A stretch of DNA of 64,000 nt from the NCBI GenBank assembly GCA_963702895.1, contig OY969767.1:2624001-2688000 (forward strand), read 5' to 3'. The translations under genes were made by a program, and so were the position numbers. Within the stretch, counting starts at the first letter, position 1; each line of letters begins with the position of its first letter. Below the pieces are notes generated by a model. The model did no database searches and was not told the origin of the DNA. It worked only from the letters and a program-made list of their open reading frames with translations. Below, piece after piece: positions 815-52,877 of the stretch. Origin of the DNA: an uncultured Elusimicrobia bacterium. GTDB taxonomy: Bacteria > Elusimicrobiota > Elusimicrobia > 2-01-FULL-59-12.

Positions 815-1495
815 TTATGGCGTATTATAACCCTCTTTTTCTAAACGCTCCATCACGCGGCTGCGGCGCTCAGCCAAGAAGGGCTTTTCGCTAAAGGGGC
901 TCCACTTTCTTGGGCTCGGCAGGATAGAAGCCAGCGCGGCCGCTTCCCAGGGCGCGATCTCGGAAGATGACTTCCAGCAGTAATACTGGGAAGCCGCCTC
1001 AACACCGTAAATGCCGGGCCCCCACTCCGCCAGATTCAAATAGAGCTCCAGAATGCGTCTTTTGGGCAAGAGAGCTTCCAGATAAAGCGTCAGCACCGCC
1101 TCCTTAAGCTTCCGAAGGATCGACTTTCTTGGGCGCAAGTAGAGGGTCCGGGCCAGCTGCTGCGTAATCGTACTACCACCATAAACGTATCGTCTTTTGA
1201 GCCAGTTTCTTTCAAATGCTATGCGGATTTGTTCCAGATCAAATCCATGATGTTGGTAGAACCGATCATCTTCCGCAATGACAATCGCGTGGACAAGGGC
1301 TGGCGAGATCTCACGTAAGGGCTTCCACGACAACACAGGCGTAAACTTCCGTCCTCGTTTCCTGGCCTCGGCCCTGCGTAATTCTATTAAGGAAGTCGTG
1401 CGGGGATTTTGGGTCTTGAGGTCAAAAACGCGGTAGGGCCAAAAGAGGTAGAGCAGAAACACGGCAAGAGCAAGTTTCGCGAAACGGCGGATCAC
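815..1495 (-). CDS. mtgA: Monofunctional peptidoglycan transglycosylase (GT51)
   Basis: AEDDRFYQHHGFD, GGSTITQQLAR, RKLKE and LELYLN motifs; probable GTG start at 1495. Confidence 0.9.
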   Translation of the reverse strand: MIRRFAKLALAVFLLYLFWPYRVFDLKTQNPRTTSLIELRRAEARKRGRKFTPVLSWKPLREISPALVHAIVIAEDDRFYQHHGFDLEQIRIAFERNWLKRRYVYGGSTITQQLARTLYLRPRKSILRKLKEAVLTLYLEALLPKRRILELYLNLAEWGPGIYGVEAASQYYCWKSSSEIAPWEAAALASILPSPRKWSPFSEKPFLAERRSRVMERLEKEGYNTP

Positions 1496-1499
1496 AGGT

Positions 1500-2459
1500 T
1501 CATTGTATAAGCGAAGCAGGTGTTTTCGTCCAGGCGCCCTGCAGGAGTTTGCGCGCCTTATGAAGGCGCGACATGACCGTCCCTTCCGGGATACGCATCT
1601 TCCGTGCGATATGTTCATAAGAAAGACCTTTGAGGCAATAGAGTTCGAGGACCTTTCGGTAAGGCTGTGGGATTTGTCCCAACGTTTCTAAGGCCTGTTG
1701 TCCCATCTCTTTGGCAGCCAGCATATTCTCCTCTGGCTCTTGCTGATCAAGAAGCGGAAGGATCTGTTCCGCTTTTGTTTCCAGAAGAGCTTCCAAGGAG
1801 AGGGGCAGCGGCTTTCGGTAGGCGGCCATATATTCATTCATCGCAATTCGGTAGATCCATGTAAAAAAGCCTGCTTCGCCGCGAAATTCCGGCAGACGAT
1901 CGAGGGCCGTTTCCAGTGTGTGGGAGATGACATCCTCCAGATGCGTTTCGTTGCGAATGGCGCTGCCGAGGCTTTCCACCAATCGTTTTCGGTATTTCTG
2001 GATGAGCACATCAAACGCCGAGCGATTCCCCGCGACAGCGGCTTGGATCAATTTATATTCGGCGCTCATCGGTCCATTCCAGGGGCAGGTATTCTCTTCC
2101 AGATGGTAGAGCACGCGGTCTAAGAGCTGTGCCGGGTTGAGAGGTTTGGCGATATAGTCACTGGCCCCGCAGGAAAAGCCGTGCAGCCATTCCTCCGGGC
2201 GACGCCTGACGGTGAGCATGATGATGGGGAGCTCCTCTGCCCCGTAGTCTTTTCGCGCCTGCGCGCAAAAATCATAGCCGCTCATATCGGGCAGATTAAT
2301 GTCGAGAAGAATGGCCCCGGGTTTCCGCTCGCGCAGAAGCGCGAGCCCTTGGGCCCCGGTCTCGACCGTGCTCACCAGGAGCCTGGCCCGTCCCAGGATA
2401 CGCCGGAGGAGCAATTGATAGTCTTCCTCATCTTCCACACACAAGACCGTTCGGTTCAT
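1500..2459 (-). CDS. Response-regulator receiver fused to ECF sigma-70 factor
   Basis: REC: VEDE, LLDINLPDMSG, MLT, AKP; sigma2: AGNRSAFDVLIQKY...FFTWIYRIAMN; sigma4: GLSYEHIARKMRIPEGTVMSRLHKAR. Confidence 0.88.
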   Translation of the reverse strand: MNRTVLCVEDEEDYQLLLRRILGRARLLVSTVETGAQGLALLRERKPGAILLDINLPDMSGYDFCAQARKDYGAEELPIIMLTVRRRPEEWLHGFSCGASDYIAKPLNPAQLLDRVLYHLEENTCPWNGPMSAEYKLIQAAVAGNRSAFDVLIQKYRKRLVESLGSAIRNETHLEDVISHTLETALDRLPEFRGEAGFFTWIYRIAMNEYMAAYRKPLPLSLEALLETKAEQILPLLDQQEPEENMLAAKEMGQQALETLGQIPQPYRKVLELYCLKGLSYEHIARKMRIPEGTVMSRLHKARKLLQGAWTKTPASLIQ

Positions 2460-2460
2460 G

Positions 2461-3927
2461 TCAGACTCTCCTTCGGCTGTCGTCATGAGGAGCGCTTTCA
2501 AGACTCGTGATGGCAGGAAGCGTAAACGAAAAGCAGCTGCCCTCTCCGGGACGGCTGGCCACACGGAGCGTGCCGCGATGCTCTTCGATCAAAAGCCGGC
2601 AGATGGCCAGGCCAAGGCCTGTCCCTTTCGGTCCCTTGACGGCCGCACGGGCCGATTTCACCTGCTCAAACTTGTCAAAAATCTTTTTCTGATCTTCAGG
2701 CGAGATCCCAAGGCCGCTGTCTTTGACCCAAACGCACAGTTGGCCCTCTTTCGGAAGGTGCTCGAGGCCGAGCTCGATCATGCCCCCGTCTGGAGTGAAC
2801 TTGATAGCGTTGGACAGGAGGTTGATGAGGACCTGGCGGACCTTGTTGCTGTCCGCCCAGGCTTTTGGCAGGGCCCCGCGGGGGACGCGAACGCGCGCGA
2901 GGAGAGACCTTTCGTCCAATTTCGGCGCGTAGAACGACAGAACCTCTTGAACAAGCTCATCCAACGCGAAGGCTTGGCAATCCAGGACCATTTTGCCGCG
3001 CTCAAGCGCTGCCACATCCAGCAAGTCGTTCACGAAACGCGTGAGACGCTGAGCATTCGCTTGAAGGCGACCGATATAGAGTGGCCAGGACTCTTGGTTT
3101 GTGCCCTCCCGGACTTCCTCGTCCATCAGGTTCAAGAAGGACTCCATCGCGCTCAAGGGGGAGCGCAGTTCATGCGTGACCGCCGATACAAAGTCTTCTT
3201 TCATCGCGTCGAGCTGCTGAAGATCGTTGGCCATGGACTGAAAGGATCTGGAAAGAAGCCCCAACTCGTCCGCGCGAAGCGTCGCCTGGAGGGGTTCGAT
3301 CTGATAGATCCCCTTGCCCACGTGTCCCGAGGCTTGCGCCAAAGCTTCGATCGGTCTTGTCCAGGAGCGCGCCAGTCCAAACGACACCAGCACGCCGATG
3401 GCCACCGCGCCGAGCGCGATCAACTCGAGGCGCTCTTGGAGCCCGGCCAAGCGTGCGCCCATCAGGGCCTGAAGTTTCTCTTCCGAGAAGCCTGCCGAGA
3501 CGTTGGCGACGCACTGTCCCCCGAGATGGACGGCTTGCGTGAGCACGAGGATGGCGTTGCGCCCGTCATGCTCGCTGGCCGAGGATCTCTCCGAGCTCAG
3601 ACCGCTCCTGGGAGGGAGGACGCTGCCTATTTGATGGGGTTCGGAATGGGCCAGGATTTCACCGCGGGGGCTCACCACGCTCAGACTCGTGATGGCGGGG
3701 TTCCATTTCTGTATCCATCGCGTGTACTTCACCAGCAACAGGTCATCGTTGGTCAAAAATGACTCGCGGGCAATATGCGCGACATTCTGCACCAGCGCGC
3801 GGCGCTCCTTCTCTGCTTCCGCACGAAACGTGCGGCTCTCGGCAAGGTAGAAAGTGCCGCACAGGGCCATGGTGGTGCCGGCCAGAAGGCCGGAGACCGT
3901 CAAGGAGAGTTTAGGGAAAAGCTTCAT
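2461..3927 (-). CDS. HAMP-domain sensor histidine kinase
   Basis: 2 TM, HAMP (RADELGLLSRSFQSM), H-box THELRSPL, NAIKFT, DSGLGI, GTGLGL. Confidence 0.93.
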   Translation of the reverse strand: MKLFPKLSLTVSGLLAGTTMALCGTFYLAESRTFRAEAEKERRALVQNVAHIARESFLTNDDLLLVKYTRWIQKWNPAITSLSVVSPRGEILAHSEPHQIGSVLPPRSGLSSERSSASEHDGRNAILVLTQAVHLGGQCVANVSAGFSEEKLQALMGARLAGLQERLELIALGAVAIGVLVSFGLARSWTRPIEALAQASGHVGKGIYQIEPLQATLRADELGLLSRSFQSMANDLQQLDAMKEDFVSAVTHELRSPLSAMESFLNLMDEEVREGTNQESWPLYIGRLQANAQRLTRFVNDLLDVAALERGKMVLDCQAFALDELVQEVLSFYAPKLDERSLLARVRVPRGALPKAWADSNKVRQVLINLLSNAIKFTPDGGMIELGLEHLPKEGQLCVWVKDSGLGISPEDQKKIFDKFEQVKSARAAVKGPKGTGLGLAICRLLIEEHRGTLRVASRPGEGSCFSFTLPAITSLESAPHDDSRRRV

Positions 3928-5209
3928 CGCGAGGCTCTTCCTCTCTCCGAAGCGCAATTTCCTTTTGGACTTTGCCCAGGGCGAGTTTCGCTTTTTCATG
4001 ACCGGGGTTCATGCGCGCCGTGATGCGCCACTCTCTCATCGCCTCATCAAGTTTCCCGCTCGCGTAGGCGATGAGCCCTGCTTCGTAGTGCAACTGCGCG
4101 GCTTTTGGATCATGAAGCCGACGCCTCTCGGCGGTCGCCATCGCAAGATAGGCGTGAGCCCCTGGATGTGAAGGGTCAAGACGCAAGACGTCCTCAAAGG
4201 CCTCCTGGGCTTGAGCGAAAAGCCGGTGGTCCAGGGCGCCAAGCCCCTCCTGCAGCCTGCTTTCGATCGCTCGCCTTTTCTTTTCCCCGAGCCTGGCCGC
4301 GCGGTCTTTCTCCAGCGCGGCTTCCGTTTGCACCAGGTAGTAGCCCAATTGGGGATAACCGGGTTCTTGAATGGCGATCTTCCTGAATTCTTCCAGTGCG
4401 CTCGGGAAGCGTTTCTGCTGGAAATGATGGACCCCGCTGTCGAAAAGACCCTTCAGGTCCTCCAGGCGCTTGAGCTCATCGCAATGCCGACGCGCAAGGG
4501 TTTCGTAGGCCGGGACGCGCAGCAGCTTCATATGACGTTCGGCTTCAGCAGGGGCATCGCTTTGCGTAATGAGCGTCCGCAGTTTTGTCCACGCGGACAG
4601 TGCCGCGGCATAATCCGCCTGGCCGTAGGCATAGAACCCTTCCACCGCGTAGCGCTCCATGATCGACATCCCCGCGTTGCCATCCAGAGCATGCCGCATC
4701 TGACTTTGTAGCTCGCTCAGCTCCCTTTGGGCTTCTGGAAACGAGCCTTCTTCCGAAAGCACCTTCAGGAGAATGTCGGCAGCCGAAAGGAGTCGCCCCG
4801 CTTGGCGCTCCAGTCGCGCCTCTTCGCAAGCCGAAAGCCACTTCGATTTTTGTGCCCGCTCCGCAGCGCTTGATGTCTCTTGAAAAGCTTGGGCCAAGGG
4901 TTCGAGGTTTTCGTCACGCTGCCGAGCGAAGCTCGTGGCCTCATTTAAGATCTGGAGCCGGTGCTCGCGGAGGAGGCCCTGGCGCTCCGCTTCCATTTGG
5001 CGCGTTGTCAGCGTCACGTAGGCGTGGGCTTCCGCGTTGGAGGGGTCGCTTTGAAGCACCTCGAGAAAATCCGCCATCGCCTCTGACCATCGGCGCGCTT
5101 GAAAGGAGGCAATGCCGCTCTCCAGGCTTGCCGAGCAGTACTGAGAAGAAGCCGGGATGGCCACGATCAAAACCAGGGGGACAATCGATCGAGCGCCTTG
5201 GCGGTTCAT
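3911..5209 (-). CDS. Exported tetratricopeptide-repeat protein
   Basis: Signal peptide; repeated TPR helices (VLQSDPSNAEAHAY, VLRLDPSHPGAHAY, MNPGHEKAKLAL). Confidence 0.8.
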   Translation of the reverse strand: MNRQGARSIVPLVLIVAIPASSQYCSASLESGIASFQARRWSEAMADFLEVLQSDPSNAEAHAYVTLTTRQMEAERQGLLREHRLQILNEATSFARQRDENLEPLAQAFQETSSAAERAQKSKWLSACEEARLERQAGRLLSAADILLKVLSEEGSFPEAQRELSELQSQMRHALDGNAGMSIMERYAVEGFYAYGQADYAAALSAWTKLRTLITQSDAPAEAERHMKLLRVPAYETLARRHCDELKRLEDLKGLFDSGVHHFQQKRFPSALEEFRKIAIQEPGYPQLGYYLVQTEAALEKDRAARLGEKKRRAIESRLQEGLGALDHRLFAQAQEAFEDVLRLDPSHPGAHAYLAMATAERRRLHDPKAAQLHYEAGLIAYASGKLDEAMREWRITARMNPGHEKAKLALGKVQKEIALRREEEPRDEAFP

Positions 5210-6654
5210 CGAATCACCATGAGCTTTCCCGTCTTTCTGTCTACGGAGGAGCTCACCTCCCAGAGGTAAACGCCGGAGGCAACAGGATCGCCGTGAACCG
5301 TTTTCACGTCCCAGACCTCCTGTGCCAAGGACCCTCCCAGGTCGGTGTGGTGAAGTTCACGAACGAGCTCACCCGAGAGGGTGAATATTTTGATGTGACA
5401 CTCCGAAGGAAGGTTGCTGAAGGTGATGCCTCCCGTTTCTGTGCCTGTCTGGGCGGGCCCCGGCCCTGCCTGTGGTCCATGAGGACGCCAGGGCACCGGG
5501 AACGCGTAACTCTCCGAAGCGTTGCCATCGGGGCTGCCCATGAGGGCAAAGACAGAAAAGCGGGTGATGGGGGCAGAGACACTTTGGCTGTCGCCCCGAA
5601 AACGGCTTTCGGGGATTTTGACCCAGAGCTTGTGCTCTTCATCGAGCGCCCAGAGCGAAAGCGTCTGTGGCCGTATGAGGGCGGGTAAAACGCTGGGGCT
5701 CGAGCCCAGGCCGTAGCTCATGATGAGCTCTGCCGTCTGGGAGAGGGGTCCTAAACCGTCTCCTTGCGCGTTGCAGGCTGTGATTTCCTGAATTGAGACA
5801 GGAACGCGGTAGGCCCCGCCGGATCTGGCCGCCTTTTCATTGGCTTCCTGAATCAGCCCGGGGTCGATGCGTAAGGGGTTGTTGATCGGGTCCCTCGCCA
5901 GCAAGATGACGGAAAAATCAGAGAGTGATTGACTGGGGATGTGAAGAAAGGTCACAGCAGAGGCAGGCCACGTGGTTCCGAGAGCGCCCTCGGGCACAAT
6001 GGGGTTCAGAACAACATTGTTGAGGTGGGGGTCGAGCAGCGTTGAGAAGGAAATGTGCACGTCCTGATCGAGCGGCTCGCCGTCTACGCTTCGAATCTGC
6101 GGGGAGAGATGAACATCGTAGAGCGTGTTCCCCATCCAGGCCTGCCCAGGGCTGATCGTGATGGTGCGGGTCTCCGGATCGTGAGAGACCCTGATCGGTG
6201 CCGTGGCGCTCCCGGGAAGGCCAGCATGGTCTCGGAGAAGACTTACTTGGAGTCCTGAAGCAAGAGACGCATCGTCCAGTTGATCTGAAAACACCAGAGT
6301 GACAGGGGCGTCCAGCGCAACGCCCACCTGCCACCCATCCTGGTAAAAGGATTTTTGACCTGGCAAGCCCACGCGCGCCGAAAGCACGGTAAGCGGCATG
6401 CCGCTTCCGAACCCGCCCGCCAGATACCCGGACAAGAGCGTATAAGGTGGCGCGCTTACGAGCGTTGCCGCTGCTGGCTCGCCCCAGGCAAATCTAAGGC
6501 TAAAGTCTCCGCTCGCCATCGCGGAGGAGCCGGTTGCTCCCTGGAGGTCTTTCGTGAGGACCAAGGTCCCGCCCGTCGCGGGGCCGGCATGCGCCAGCCC
6601 GCCCAAGAGCGCCAGCAGGAAAACGCTAAGGAGTTGTCGCCTTAAGCTTTTCAT
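5206..6654 (-). CDS. Secreted Ig-like (Big_5/SbsA) protein with FlgD-Ig/T9SS-type C-terminal domain
   Basis: Signal peptide; VTLVFSDQLD...TITISP...YDV Ig pattern; C-terminus YAFPVPWRP...IKIFTLSGELVREL...WDVKT...VASGVYL. Confidence 0.75.
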   Translation of the reverse strand: MKSLRRQLLSVFLLALLGGLAHAGPATGGTLVLTKDLQGATGSSAMASGDFSLRFAWGEPAAATLVSAPPYTLLSGYLAGGFGSGMPLTVLSARVGLPGQKSFYQDGWQVGVALDAPVTLVFSDQLDDASLASGLQVSLLRDHAGLPGSATAPIRVSHDPETRTITISPGQAWMGNTLYDVHLSPQIRSVDGEPLDQDVHISFSTLLDPHLNNVVLNPIVPEGALGTTWPASAVTFLHIPSQSLSDFSVILLARDPINNPLRIDPGLIQEANEKAARSGGAYRVPVSIQEITACNAQGDGLGPLSQTAELIMSYGLGSSPSVLPALIRPQTLSLWALDEEHKLWVKIPESRFRGDSQSVSAPITRFSVFALMGSPDGNASESYAFPVPWRPHGPQAGPGPAQTGTETGGITFSNLPSECHIKIFTLSGELVRELHHTDLGGSLAQEVWDVKTVHGDPVASGVYLWEVSSSVDRKTGKLMVIR

Positions 6655-7748
6655 GGGTCTCCTTCATCATGCGCAGCGCGTCAGGGTGTGTCGGGTCGAT
6701 TTCCAGGGACTTGTTGAATTCCACAAGGGCCTCCGCGTAACGCCCTCTCCGCAGTTCCCGCATGCCTTGAAGGTAGGCCGTCTGTGCCAAGACCACGGGA
6801 TCAGGAGGCGTGATACCAAAACGGAGGGTCAGTCCTGCCTTGTGGGTTTGCCCAAGGTCCCCCGCGTCGGCAAAGGCATAGTCCACTTGCAGGGTGCGAA
6901 ATTTTATGCCCGCGCCAAGGCGCAAGCCTGTCCCCACGTCCGCGCGAGAGGTGTAACCAGCCCGTAGAATCAGCAAGCGCAAAGAGGAAAGTTTCAAGGC
7001 CTGCCCCCGTGGAGGTTTTTCCTGCCTGGGGTTGTTCGCCGTCAAGGGTGAGCGTGAGTTTTTCGCCCAGCCACACCCCGGTCCAGGAAAGGCCGCCAAC
7101 CAAAGCCCGAGGGAGAGGGAACGACTCCTGGTCAAATTTCAAGGACGAACCCATGTTTTTGAGCGCAAGCCCCAGCGTGAGCCCTTCGAAAGTCTGACTA
7201 TGCCGTCGCCCGGGGCTATAAAGGAGGCCTATGTCGATGGCCAGCGCATGGGCCGAAATGGAATCCAAACGCTCCTCGATCCATTTTGCCGTTCCACCCA
7301 GCGAAAGCTCCGACCCCATCCTTCGGTTGCTGAAGAGGGTCCTCGCGTAACTTAGAGCTAGGGCCGTGTCGCTTGCGCTCACTTCTCCCGTGGCCTCTCC
7401 GACAGCGTCAAAGGCCTCAAAAGAGCCCGTACCCAAATGAGTCAGGGATCCTGCCAGGGTTCCCCACCGGGCGGAGGGGTGGGCATAAGCGACATAGTCC
7501 GATCGCATGTCCAGGGCGAGTTCCGCATGCACAAAGCCAGCTTCTCTGGATTGGAGTCTGGCCAGTCCCGCGGGGTTCCAATAGGTGGCGTAAACGTCAT
7601 CCGCAAGACCCACTTGGGCCTCCCCCATGCCGATGCCCCGGGGACTGGCACCCAGTCTGAGAAATTGGGCGGATGAGGTGCCGGGGTCTGAGGCCAGCGC
7701 CGCCCCAGGCCAAAGGGTCCATAGCAAGAGAAGGAAGCGTTTCATCAA
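6626..7748 (-). pseudogene. PorV/PorQ-family outer-membrane barrel with C-terminal TPR, split by a frameshift near 6992
   Basis: FLRLGASPRGIGMGEA...YWNPAGL in one frame; LRAGY...LRLGAGIKFRTLQVDYAF...GQTHKAGLTLRF plus TPR in another. May be a sequencing error. Confidence 0.75.
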
Positions 7749-7896
7749 GGACCCCTATCCCTTAGAGGAGTTTGGCCAGGAAATATTCATTCCTCCGTCG
7801 ACGAATTGATTTTTAGCGGTGGTCACCCCTTAACGTTACGGTATTGCCGCAAGCTGGGGCATGGGGCGTTAGGGGAAAAATGCTGCCCCTAAAGAC

Positions 7897-8475
7897 CTAT
7901 GGAAAGACTGGGCTGGCCTGGGGTTCCTGCTGGAGGTATGTATGGACGAGAAGCGAGAAGGAGGGAGCGATCTCCGCCATGATGGTGATTTTCGTATACG
8001 CGACGATGTCGGCGTGGTTGATACGAACGATGGGGCACTCGCCATCTGACGTGGTGCGGTTAAAATCAAAGCCAATGGGATCAACCTCGCCAGAGCTCGG
8101 GCGCGCAAATTGAGCGTAGCCGTTCTTGAGAAGAACTTCCGAAAGCACCCGATCATGGATCATGGCCATGCCCATTTCATGATAAAGCGTTCGGCCGGTG
8201 TTGGCGAGGAGGGTGAGGTCTCCTACATCAAAGGCAGGGAAAATATAGCGCGTGACGAGAGACCTATAAGAAGGCGGGAGCTTTCGCTGGAGCGCGTCTT
8301 CCAAGGACTCAATCCAATTGATGCGATCAAAACGCTGAATGGTCCAGTCATAGTAGAGCCCGAACTCCGCGCCACCCCCGCGCAAGGGATGAGGAACATC
8401 TTCTTCCCGAATACGACGACGCGGCGTATTATTGACTTTTCTGACGAAGGCATCGACGACATCATCCACTTCCAT
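7897..8475 (-). CDS. SMI1/KNR4 (SUKH)-like protein
   Basis: IESLEDALQRKLPPSYRSLV and DPIGFDF...ECPIVRINH patterns; GGAGG-type RBS. Confidence 0.55.
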   Translation of the reverse strand: MEVDDVVDAFVRKVNNTPRRRIREEDVPHPLRGGGAEFGLYYDWTIQRFDRINWIESLEDALQRKLPPSYRSLVTRYIFPAFDVGDLTLLANTGRTLYHEMGMAMIHDRVLSEVLLKNGYAQFARPSSGEVDPIGFDFNRTTSDGECPIVRINHADIVAYTKITIMAEIAPSFSLLVHTYLQQEPQASPVFP

Positions 8476-8610: not shown

Positions 8611-9995
8611 GAGCTTTAGTCAAATGTGATGGAAATCGATCGGCGCCCCTTTGGTCGAAAGTCTCTTAGGCCGCTACCTCCAGCTTCTCTCGTTCGACGA
8701 ATAATCCCATCACCAATTCCGGCTTCTCAATCGGCTTCCAGAATTGCGCCAGGCGTTCAATGATTTTGTAGACGAACGCTACTCCCGTGCGAGATTTCTG
8801 AAACCGCCGCACAACGCGAGTTCGCAATCGGACCCCCGCGAAGACCGACTCGATCGGATTGCTCGTCTTTAAATGCACCCAGTGCTCCTTCGGAAAGTCG
8901 AAGTAGCGCAGCAAGGCGTCATGGTCCTTCCGGATACAAGCCGCCGCCTTCGGGTAGCGAATCTCCAGGTCCTCGGCTAACAAGGCCAGGTGATTCTCCG
9001 CGTCTTCTCGACGCTCCGCCTGATACGCTACGCGCAGACGGTTGAGCACCTCCTCTTGCTTGGCCTTCGGCACTTTATCCACGACGTTGCGCATCTTGTG
9101 CTTCCAGCACCGTTGATCTTTGGCGGTCGGATAGACCTCCGCCACCGCCTCCCAGAGCCCACCCATCCCATCGCCGATAACCAAGAGCGGAGCGGGCATT
9201 CCACGCTCCGCCACCCCTCGCCAGATTTCCTTCCAGGAATCCCGGCTCTCCCGGTAGCCTTCCATCAGAGCAATCAGCTCTTTCTTCCCATCGGCATTCA
9301 CGCCAACCAACACTAAAAGCGCCGTATTCTCTTTCTCCAGCCCGGCCTTCAAGTACACGCCGTCCGCCCAGACATAGGCGTAACGCGTTTCGGATAAGTC
9401 CCGGCGGCTGAAGGTGGCCAGGTCCGATTGAAACTTCGCCGATAAACGCAGGATCGTGCTGGCTGATAAGGTGGCTCCATCCCCGATCAGTGCTCGCATC
9501 GCCGGCTCAAAGTCCCGGCTCGAGAGCCCCTCCAGGTACAGCCGCCGGAATAACTCCTCGACACCCTCGGTTCGCCGCTGGTACGGACGCAAGATGCTCG
9601 ACTCAAACTCGCCCCCGTCGACTTGCGGCACCGAGAGCTTTAAACCTGCTCCCAAAACTGTCACCTTCCGCTCCCGGGTTCCGTTGCGATAGCCTTTCTC
9701 CAGGCTCTTCGCCCGCTCATAGCGCCGCCGCTCCAGATACATCGTCACTTCTTCCTCCAGGGCTTCCACCAGCATTTTGCGCGCTCCCTCTCGGGCCAGA
9801 TAATCCAGCATGCTCTCTTTGTGTTCGCAGCCTTTCACGTTTACAATGGTCTTCATAACGGCGTCTCCTTTTCGTTTATTGTCCGCTTGAACGGACAGGT
9901 TTGTTTGGTTCAACGAAAGGGTACGCCGTTATCTATTCCTAAGGCAAATCCTTCCTTGCCTCAGAACCTATTTCCAGCACTTTTGATGGTAACTC
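8611..9995. mobile_element. IS256-family insertion sequence (1385 bp)
   Basis: Imperfect terminal IRs GAGCTTTAGTCAAATGTGATGGAAAT / GAGTTACCATCAAAAGTGCTGGAAAT; 9-bp direct repeat CCCTGCTGG at 8602-8610 and 9996-10004. Confidence 0.9.
8666..9856 (-). CDS. IS256-family (mutator-type) DDE transposase
   Basis: GYRNG, LYLEGLSSRDF, YVWADGVY, IGDG, QRCWKHKMRN, TSNPIES. Confidence 0.95.
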   Translation of the reverse strand: MKTIVNVKGCEHKESMLDYLAREGARKMLVEALEEEVTMYLERRRYERAKSLEKGYRNGTRERKVTVLGAGLKLSVPQVDGGEFESSILRPYQRRTEGVEELFRRLYLEGLSSRDFEPAMRALIGDGATLSASTILRLSAKFQSDLATFSRRDLSETRYAYVWADGVYLKAGLEKENTALLVLVGVNADGKKELIALMEGYRESRDSWKEIWRGVAERGMPAPLLVIGDGMGGLWEAVAEVYPTAKDQRCWKHKMRNVVDKVPKAKQEEVLNRLRVAYQAERREDAENHLALLAEDLEIRYPKAAACIRKDHDALLRYFDFPKEHWVHLKTSNPIESVFAGVRLRTRVVRRFQKSRTGVAFVYKIIERLAQFWKPIEKPELVMGLFVEREKLEVAA

Positions 9996-52660: not shown

Positions 52661-52877
52661 AAGGGCTTTCGCCCGAGCCTATTCGCCGACTCTCCGTTCA
52701 AAAAGTTCCTATCCCTGTGTTTAATTGCCGGTATCTTCCTCCTTCGTTTTTGGTCCAAGAATACCCTCGAAGTGAATCCCCCGCTGTGCATTCTCCTTTC
52801 ATTCGTGAATATTCTCTGCTCTTTTGCATCTAAGGGATAGGGACGCAGGACGTTTTGTCCTGGGAAGAGAGGCTCCT

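Follow-up and report, generated by a model that had tools for sequence, protein, structure and literature searches.

A receiver-ECF sigma fusion in Elusimicrobia as a predicted switch for natural competence

Introduction

Sigma factors of the extracytoplasmic function (ECF) type are known to be controlled in several ways: by anti-sigma factors, by PhyR partner switching, by extensions of the protein, by Ser/Thr phosphorylation, and by two-component systems that act on their transcription (PMC7826278, PMC8999054; all sources given here by PMC number are cited from the parts of them that were accessible). In these parts of the two surveys, no group appears in which a receiver is fused to a working ECF. 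A putative fusion of exactly this kind is the subject of the present paper. It is encoded in a window of 64,000 nucleotides from an uncultured Elusimicrobia bacterium (assembly GCA_963702895.1, contig OY969767.1, positions 2,624,001 to 2,688,000; coordinates below are those of the window), where it is the fifth of six minus-strand genes between positions 815 and 7748. We consider it probable that this protein, hereafter REC-sigma, is a kinase-activated and self-amplifying sigma factor of competence type, with a defined promoter and regulon.

Several described systems share parts of this arrangement. ComX, an alternative sigma factor, has among its targets recA, comEC, comF, dprA, radC and the pilus. 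In PhyR, the sigma-like domain comes first and the receiver last, the DNA-binding residues have been lost, and NepR and EcfG are encoded as neighbours. In cell-surface signalling of the FecARI type, an outer-membrane protein and a periplasmic link lead to an ECF output, and in the secretion system of type IX (T9SS), PorV shuttles cargo tagged by a C-terminal domain (CTD). Competence in streptococci is under ComD-ComE control (PMC4005675). As for the T9SS of Porphyromonas gingivalis, PorX binds the ECF SigP directly, and parts of the secretion system are among the SigP targets (PMC4800418).

The receiver-sigma fusion and its kinase

REC-sigma has 319 amino acids (aa) and is encoded at 1500..2459 on the minus strand. 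Its receiver (residues 5-116, Response_reg, with Asp53, Thr83 and Lys105) is joined by a linker to sigma2 (Sigma70_r2, 152-216) and sigma4 (Sigma70_r4_2, 255-306, with the stretch GTVMSRL); TIGR02937 is matched over its cut-off and sigma3 is absent. By its predicted domain content, it is an ECF (group 4) sigma factor. The structural model (pLDDT 83.7) has a normal receiver, a loose linker and sigma2/sigma4, and its fold matches in the PDB are receivers for one side and, separately, AlgU and RpoE for the other.

Is the fusion real? A frameshift artefact was considered, with an alternative frame that stops in ATGA at the linker, and it is refuted by the full-length, stop-free relatives. They occur in each of the 10 other family genomes and in the order's only genome outside the family, against 0/29 other genomes of the class; the fusion is intact in 12/12 genomes of the order, with three copies in G006 and two in G008 (G and L numbers denote genomes and loci). 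Among metagenomic loci that hold both domains, several of them near-duplicates, the two lie in the same frame in 28/28. Of the 181 homologues found in a protein search, the 120 that are listed all have receiver and sigma domains, and two of the listed ones are assigned to Elusimicrobiota by their source. Across the phylum, a search of 251 genomes, with 8 candidates scored per genome, found REC-sigma only in the two members of the family that are among them. In a search of representative proteins, the matches listed (at least 215 bits) are 6 full-length clusters, then fragments and multi-receiver proteins; unrelated fusions of this type scoring below 215 bits fall outside this range. A scan of contigs for REC-sigma returned mostly ordinary receivers and was uninformative.

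Among the 120 listed homologues, Asp53 is kept in 120/120, and Thr83 and Lys105 in 119/120 each, and the motifs by which sigma2.3/2.4 and sigma4.2 would contact DNA show strong conservation. There are also two conserved surfaces, a near-invariant TVRRRPxEW on the receiver and an E134..GN helix with which the sigma part opens. The adjoining gene (2461..3927, minus strand) encodes a membrane histidine kinase, composed of a transmembrane segment, a small Cache-like sensor (a weak sCache match in the family scan), a second transmembrane segment, HAMP, HisKA and HATPase; its His252, in HisKA, is conserved in 14/14, and the His and ATP-binding boxes are present. The kinase and the receiver thus look like a functional pair, joined to a sigma domain whose DNA-binding motifs appear intact, and it is the adjacency of the two genes that pairs this kinase with this receiver. 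The preliminary description of the locus had recognized no anti-sigma factor, and in the gaps and flanks of the core locus that were examined we find no candidate either, an unlinked anti-sigma factor lying outside the scope of this search.

The promoter and the sigma factor that reads it

Ahead of the operon, at 7762..7788 on the minus strand, lies a sequence of ECF promoter type, GAATAT-N16-TCTAA, which is the predicted autoregulatory site of REC-sigma; in relatives, the motif likewise stands before the barrel gene with which the operon begins. At 12 loci, the region upstream of the barrel gene has the exact GAATAW-N16-TCTAA in 8/12, a 17-nt spacing in one and a variant in one. This genome, which is a single contig and 98%-complete, has 37 motif sites with a spacing of 16, and each of the other spacings between 5 and 30 gives just 0-3; of the 37, one is intragenic, probably by chance, and 36 are intergenic. 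Motif counts in the 11 genomes of the family range from 8 to 37, against 0-4 for the reversed pattern; G011 has 4 against 1, and the 29 genomes outside the order are at background. The enrichment is confined to genomes with REC-sigma. The sites lie 4-90 nt ahead of start codons. Many targets begin 4-8 nt past TCTAA, which suggests leaderless transcripts.

Which sigma factor, then, reads this promoter? The genome encodes eight proteins of the sigma70 family. In the remaining four ECFs, the position of RpoE-Arg171 (GTVxSR) is occupied by Lys or Arg; all four have a small anti-sigma-like gene adjacent, and two of them have their own sites of GGAAC..CGT type (by eye). REC-sigma has Met at this position, as is the case in 106 of the 120 listed homologues, and it is the only ECF of the genome with this GAAT-favouring residue; the residue numbers are placed on GTVxSR according to what we take to be the RpoE sequence. 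At -31, Met goes with T (0.63), and Arg and Lys with C (0.88 and 0.98, respectively; PMC7776599, Dataset S3). The preference of Met for T would match the GAAT of the motif. At -13/-12, the bases differ from genome to genome, and they go with the Asn84-position residue more closely than in shuffled assignments (p = 0.018 over 11 related genomes, which are kin rather than independent, G006 with its three copies being excluded), with a good fit in G000, G003, G005 and G010. Because the motif stands before the operon of REC-sigma itself, the two share their distribution, the other ECFs can be eliminated and one specificity residue agrees, we infer that REC-sigma reads GAATAW-N16-TCTAA, short of a full match to the specificity code.

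A second copy of the promoter motif in the window (52807..52833, plus strand) lies ahead of a gene for a 157-aa protein without Pfam match. Another upstream motif of the operon, TRGGYC (7894..7899, minus strand), is ~110 nt ahead of the -35 element. It is found within 190 nt upstream at 13/15 operon loci, in 8 of these at -105 to -124, and a search for a partner at fixed spacing gave no clear peak; it may be a second promoter or a regulator site that primes the operon. TRGGYC-like words also flank several IS256 copies (by eye). Targeting of the promoter motif by IS256 was considered and rejected, the distances running from 0.7 to 170 kb with no fixed offset. Sigma70 and terminator scans gave results close to chance.

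The predicted regulon and a proposed mechanism

The promoter and its regulon together tell what the system would switch on. Targets were compared across G000, G004, G005, G007 and G010, with 30/31 sites of G004 and 30/33 of G007 included. Common to these genomes are recA, comEC, comF, comM, a Flp-like pilin, the operon itself and fibre proteins, and further four-helix-bundle, ORF6N, REP-transposase and toxin-antitoxin (TA) genes; radC, recQ and a NucT-like nuclease occur once each. In this genome, the motif leads yraN-comM-dprA, recA and comEC, and two further sites reach their core genes across another one: a four-helix gene followed by comF, and an ORF6N gene followed by pilin, secretin and RcpC. 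The exact motif is ahead of recA at 8/9 loci of the order vs 0/21 outside it (30 of 43 matches examined), ahead of comEC in 7/11, and ahead of comM or yraN-comM in 10/11 with upstream sequence. In 4 genomes comF is directly behind the motif (here it is the second gene), and in 3 genomes so is the Flp-like pilin, whose match is weak (Flp_Fap, E 0.007). A competence set of comEC, comF, dprA, recA, comM and the pilus is found under one motif, and the accessory genes behind it are read as passengers.

Small proteins are also encoded behind the promoter: one of 59 aa in 4 genomes (L244:324-500), one of 53 aa (L267:4371-4529), and a secreted one of 111 aa in 3 genomes (L243:354-686), with a weak Metal_resist match. 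The small proteins are candidates for missing competence parts.

How might such a switch work? The neighbouring membrane kinase, with the periplasmic TPR protein as its partner, would phosphorylate Asp53 of the fused receiver. As long as it is unphosphorylated, the receiver would hold the sigma part off in cis, and phosphorylation would release or activate this part; cis-inhibition is suggested by the absence of an anti-sigma factor from the locus together with the conserved surface patches, the TVRRRPxEW patch and the E134..GN helix being the candidate contact surfaces between receiver and sigma part. The freed sigma part would then bind RNA polymerase, and the holoenzyme would transcribe from GAATAW-N16-TCTAA promoters. 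The outputs would be the operon itself, as positive feedback, and genes of DNA uptake and recombination, leading to natural competence, as the gene content of the predicted regulon suggests. The trigger is probably a surface cue.

Conservation of the operon

The six minus-strand frames are tightly packed, with overlaps of 29, 4 and 17 nt and gaps of 1 and 4 nt; the five junctions given in the preliminary description (6654/6626, 5209/5206, 3927/3911, 2461/2459 and 1500/1495) are all correct in their coordinates, and family scans agree with its domain calls of barrel, Ig protein with CTD, TPR protein, HAMP kinase, REC-sigma and mtgA. A synteny comparison had been proposed as a check on the layout, and it bears the layout out: the order of barrel-TPR, Ig/CTD, an optional fibre gene, TPR, kinase and REC-sigma is kept across the taxonomic order with its 12 genomes. 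The five core genes stand in this order on one contig at 8 loci in 6 relatives, and the other five relatives have matching fragments of the operon ended by contig ends. The operon is a real system, common to the whole order. The exception is mtgA (815..1495, minus strand), the gene of a monofunctional transglycosylase, which had been counted as a member and does not belong to the core. It directly follows REC-sigma only in the other genomes of the genus, of which there are 3; in G004 a single gene lies between the two, and the remaining loci with downstream sequence lack it. It also follows REC-sigma at a few similar metagenomic loci. We regard it as a co-oriented passenger, a neighbour mostly within the genus.

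The TPR protein (432 aa, 3911..5209, minus strand) has a signal peptide and is predicted to be periplasmic; an Atlas search with it gave generic matches only. Its gene stands directly before the kinase wherever the sequence continues: among 55 metagenomic loci, some of which duplicate one another or the genomes, the kinase follows directly in 46, the sequence ends first in 5, and 4 (L323, L324, L326 and L327) are weak, unrelated TPR matches, which are excluded from the synteny counts. Often a further gene, for a secreted product whose end is tail-collar-like, separates the Ig and TPR genes (at 22/55 of these loci). Secreted proteins that begin with PxxITYQGxLK and finish in a tail-collar-like CQKQ domain (L033:9707-10441, L263:4990-5742) are encoded within the operon and also singly behind the same promoter.

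Outside the order, in G020, G028 and G040, which belong to two other families, the Ig, barrel-TPR and TPR genes and a homologous kinase are linked with an OmpR-type regulator. The TPR protein is orthologous there (hhalign probability 97.5 over 372 columns) and the kinase is homologous over its full length; the combination of the envelope genes and the kinase with this other regulator fits a shared signalling module. At second loci in G028 and G035, the three envelope genes are beside an AcrB-type gene. Divergent extra copies of the operon (L034, L038, L288, L296, L300 and L313) have nearby an integrase, radC or an independent ECF carrying GTVLSRIF; in their sigma4 the Met is replaced by Leu, Trp or Lys, and they are possibly mobile elements with their own version of the switch. 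Upstream of the operon, the window has an open reading frame (ORF) of 192 aa without Pfam or NCBIfam match (7897-8475) and an IS256 transposase (8666-9913), with 9 related copies in the genome.

The envelope genes: sensor or output?

The first gene of the operon encodes an outer-membrane barrel of the PorV/PorQ family. It matches PorV_fam (NF033709) at 137.8 bits, over the cut-off of 90, and the PorV and PorQ equivalogs stay below their own cut-offs. The preliminary description had called it a barrel with TPR; both parts are indeed present, and the single reading frame that this implies is not found in the window. The gene is in two frames on the minus strand, 6801-7748 with PorV_fam 1-218 and 6626-7135 with PorV_fam 269-326 and the TPR. 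Its 5' part, with the signal peptide, is placed at 6995..7745 and its 3' part, with the final strands and the C-terminal TPR, at 6626..6991; between them, at 6992..6994, a run holds one base more than in all relatives, where the barrel is a single protein of 372-375 aa with a terminal TPR. An assembly error or a true frameshift is possible; comparable gene splits were found in 2/90 regions of this genome tested by comparison with the genes of relatives.

The second gene (5206..6654, minus strand) encodes a secreted Ig protein of 482 aa, with a signal peptide, an N-terminus modelled at low confidence, a Big_5 Ig domain, a beta domain and a T9SS-like CTD that terminates in KTGKLMVIR. Its C-terminus has weak matches to the C-termini of T9SS cargo, including that of PorZ, in the family scan, and PorZ ranks second in the fold search, with a low TM-score and otherwise generic matches. 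The same tail occurs on ~25 ORFs of this genome. There are 13 PorV-like loci in the genome, 8 of them with a CTD gene within ~1.1 kb, and the pairing of barrel and CTD cargo is a genome-wide pattern. A divergent SprA-like gene is visible as partial, collinear TIGR04189 matches in 11/12 genomes of the order, none over the cut-off. Given the ~25 proteins with the same tail, the barrel/CTD pairs and the SprA-like gene, the Ig protein may plausibly be exported to its own barrel.

The SprA-like gene, of 1,811 aa (G000:C1:1185972-1191407; flank of L259; L269, L270), is directly upstream of the comF promoter, and a motif site likewise comes after the SprA-like gene in G001, G004, G005, G007 and G010. 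At G000:C1:2185276-2232109, 13 large genes in a row share the CTD ending, with no PorV-like gene nearby.

Do the barrel and the Ig protein inform the kinase? It is possible, and we say so tentatively, that the SprA-like pore serves to export the CTD cargo, which would stay attached to its own barrel and send its signal inward via the barrel TPR. The full chain, in which a surface protein on the barrel would act through the TPR proteins on the kinase, and from there on REC-sigma and competence, with a portable module driving an OmpR regulator elsewhere, is rather unlikely as a whole. The relay from barrel to kinase is drawn from gene linkage, and a co-fold in which 2 copies of the kinase sensor were combined with the TPR protein (score 0.23, mark 0.32) speaks neither for nor against a contact.

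There is close to an even chance that the barrel, Ig and fibre genes are instead outputs of the regulon, made for surface display, for example for adhesion to a DNA-rich surface or to a partner cell, and that the kinase senses something else via the TPR protein. This would be compatible with the sigma part of the proposal and would replace only the trans-envelope relay. Four metagenomic loci (L306, L279, L286 and L278) have the TPR gene without a barrel or Ig gene upstream in the 0.4-3.5 kb visible; in L306 the promoter is directly ahead of the TPR gene, with neither gene in 3.5 kb, and in L274 the barrel is present and the Ig gene absent. The barrel and Ig genes are not always required beside the kinase, and the invariant core is therefore TPR-kinase-REC-sigma. 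Besides these loci, surface display agrees with the 8/13 PorV-like loci that have a CTD gene close by, with the stand-alone fibre genes behind the same promoter, and with the fact that the T9SS of P. gingivalis is itself under a kinase-regulator-ECF cascade (PMC4800418). It agrees less well with G020, G028 and G040, where the Ig, barrel-TPR, TPR and kinase genes stay linked with an OmpR-type regulator, and with the barrels terminating in a TPR that would face the periplasm. Linkage in three families speaks for a role of the barrel/Ig pair in common with the kinase; the loci without the pair show that it can be dropped or moved.

Alternative readings of the switch

A number of observations weigh against a competence switch driven by REC-sigma. 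The operon's own promoter reads CC where most sites of the genome read CA, and the fit at -13/-12 is poor in G004, G007 and G009. A prediction set beforehand, that Arg at RpoE-176 goes with G at -35, failed in 3/5 new genomes: the base at -35 is T at 17, A at 1 and G at 0 of 18 sites in G001, and T at 11 and G at 1 of 12 in G009 (sites with C unlisted). In G008, with Lys, it is A at 19 of 23 sites (again with C unlisted), and post hoc the residue preceding the sigma4 proline may track the -35 base. In G005, recA and comEC are without the motif. For comEA, 0/12 genomes of the order have a match over the TIGR00426 cut-off, and in this genome the only match is a GspK-like one. Lastly, the barrel gene of this genome is frameshifted and an IS110 transposase is found within its Flp/Tad operon (L242:3480-4529; G000:C1 about 152479-153531), and the system may be decaying in this lineage.

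Might REC-sigma own the promoter, and the regulon be a response to DNA stress or mobile DNA rather than natural competence? We judge this improbable, though it deserves weight. Two thirds of the intergenic sites here (24/36, by our own sorting) precede TA, four-helix-bundle, DUF1016 or ORF6N genes; the targets include recQ, radC, a Cas4-like nuclease and REP transposases, and the failure to find comEA in the 12 genomes would agree with such a response. The targets kept across genera are, however, the uptake set of comEC, comF, comM, dprA, the Flp pilus and recA, and accessory genes often separate a core gene from the promoter (a four-helix gene in the case of comF, an ORF6N gene in that of the pilin), as passengers would. 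A separate lexA is also present, without the motif upstream.

The competence reading also has to be weighed against one in which the sigma part acts as an anti-anti-sigma, a mimic of the PhyR kind, and the promoter is read by a different sigma factor. Region 2.2 of REC-sigma does deviate from its usual consensus DxxQE, with Ser or Ala instead of Gln, and the failed -35 prediction would be accounted for. The order of domains is nevertheless opposite to that of PhyR: the receiver comes first, the sigma2.4 and 4.2 motifs are conserved, and neither NepR nor EcfG is a neighbour. PhyR is a known protein with a receiver and a sigma-like domain (PMC8999054, PMC7826278), but the core locus here is without an anti-sigma or a partner ECF, the DNA-contact motifs in sigma2.3/2.4 and sigma4.2 show strong conservation, no other ECF of this genome has the GAAT-favouring Met, and the distributions of motif and REC-sigma coincide, all of which makes the mimic very unlikely. 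Finally, that the motif is a repeat or insertion signature spread by mobile cassettes is barely credible: its sites are grouped in variable islands and tandem duplications, with spacers and 3' flanks more similar within a genome than a promoter requires, but it has the -35/-10 form of an ECF promoter, lies 4-90 nt ahead of start codons, in many genera stands before core genes of single copy, the spacers being unrelated, and is at no fixed distance from IS256 copies.

Comparison with known systems and significance

The preliminary description knew of no system with this layout, and our literature searches likewise gave none, their coverage ending short of response-regulator censuses and most subscription papers; a passing mention of a REC-ECF architecture in print is possible. 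If the proposal is right, it adds the control of a sigma factor by Asp phosphorylation of a fused receiver, which is missing from the accessible parts of the two ECF surveys searched, and it names a master regulator of DNA uptake, with its promoter and regulon, in a lineage for which literature searches gave none. A one-protein switch from kinase to polymerase would, if confirmed, be useful as a part for synthetic biology. With the predicted promoter known, and with E. coli as a host for ECF assays, the claim could be tested even though the organism is uncultured.

PhyR-NepR-EcfG (ECF15) shares with this locus the line from a kinase, via a receiver and the sigma-type domain attached to it, to an ECF regulon (PMC8999054, PMC7826278). 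The sigma-like part of PhyR is a decoy that binds the anti-sigma NepR, whereas REC-sigma keeps its DNA-binding motifs, has its sigma part after the receiver, and has neither an anti-sigma nor a second ECF adjacent. In PorY-PorX-SigP of P. gingivalis, a kinase, a regulator and an ECF act in line, as here; they are, however, three separate and unlinked proteins, PorX stabilises SigP, and the regulon serves secretion, not DNA uptake (PMC4800418). ECF32, ECF39, ECF234 and ECF246 are also without anti-sigma and encoded beside a kinase, but a regulator with its own DNA-binding domain controls the transcription of these ECFs (PMC7826278).

With ComD-ComE/ComX, the locus has in common a membrane kinase, a receiver, an alternative sigma factor, positive feedback, and targets in uptake and recombination. 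The differences are that receiver and sigma factor are here one protein and the sigma factor an ECF, that the locus has no peptide pheromone or exporter and comEA is not found, and that the envelope is a diderm one, with barrel, CTD cargo and TPR.

As in the T9SS, a PorV-family barrel is beside CTD-tagged cargo; unlike PorV, this barrel is below the PorV/PorQ equivalog cut-offs and carries a TPR, and the SprA-like gene is divergent and below its cut-off. The envelope half of the operon would link T9SS-like barrels and cargo outside Bacteroidota to signalling. As in FecARI-type systems, an outer-membrane protein, a periplasmic link and an ECF output are together in one operon, but the inner-membrane link here is a histidine kinase and not an anti-sigma factor. 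Should the full relay from the surface to the sigma factor prove true, it would be a new kind of system, one that works with no anti-sigma factor and no separate transcription factor.

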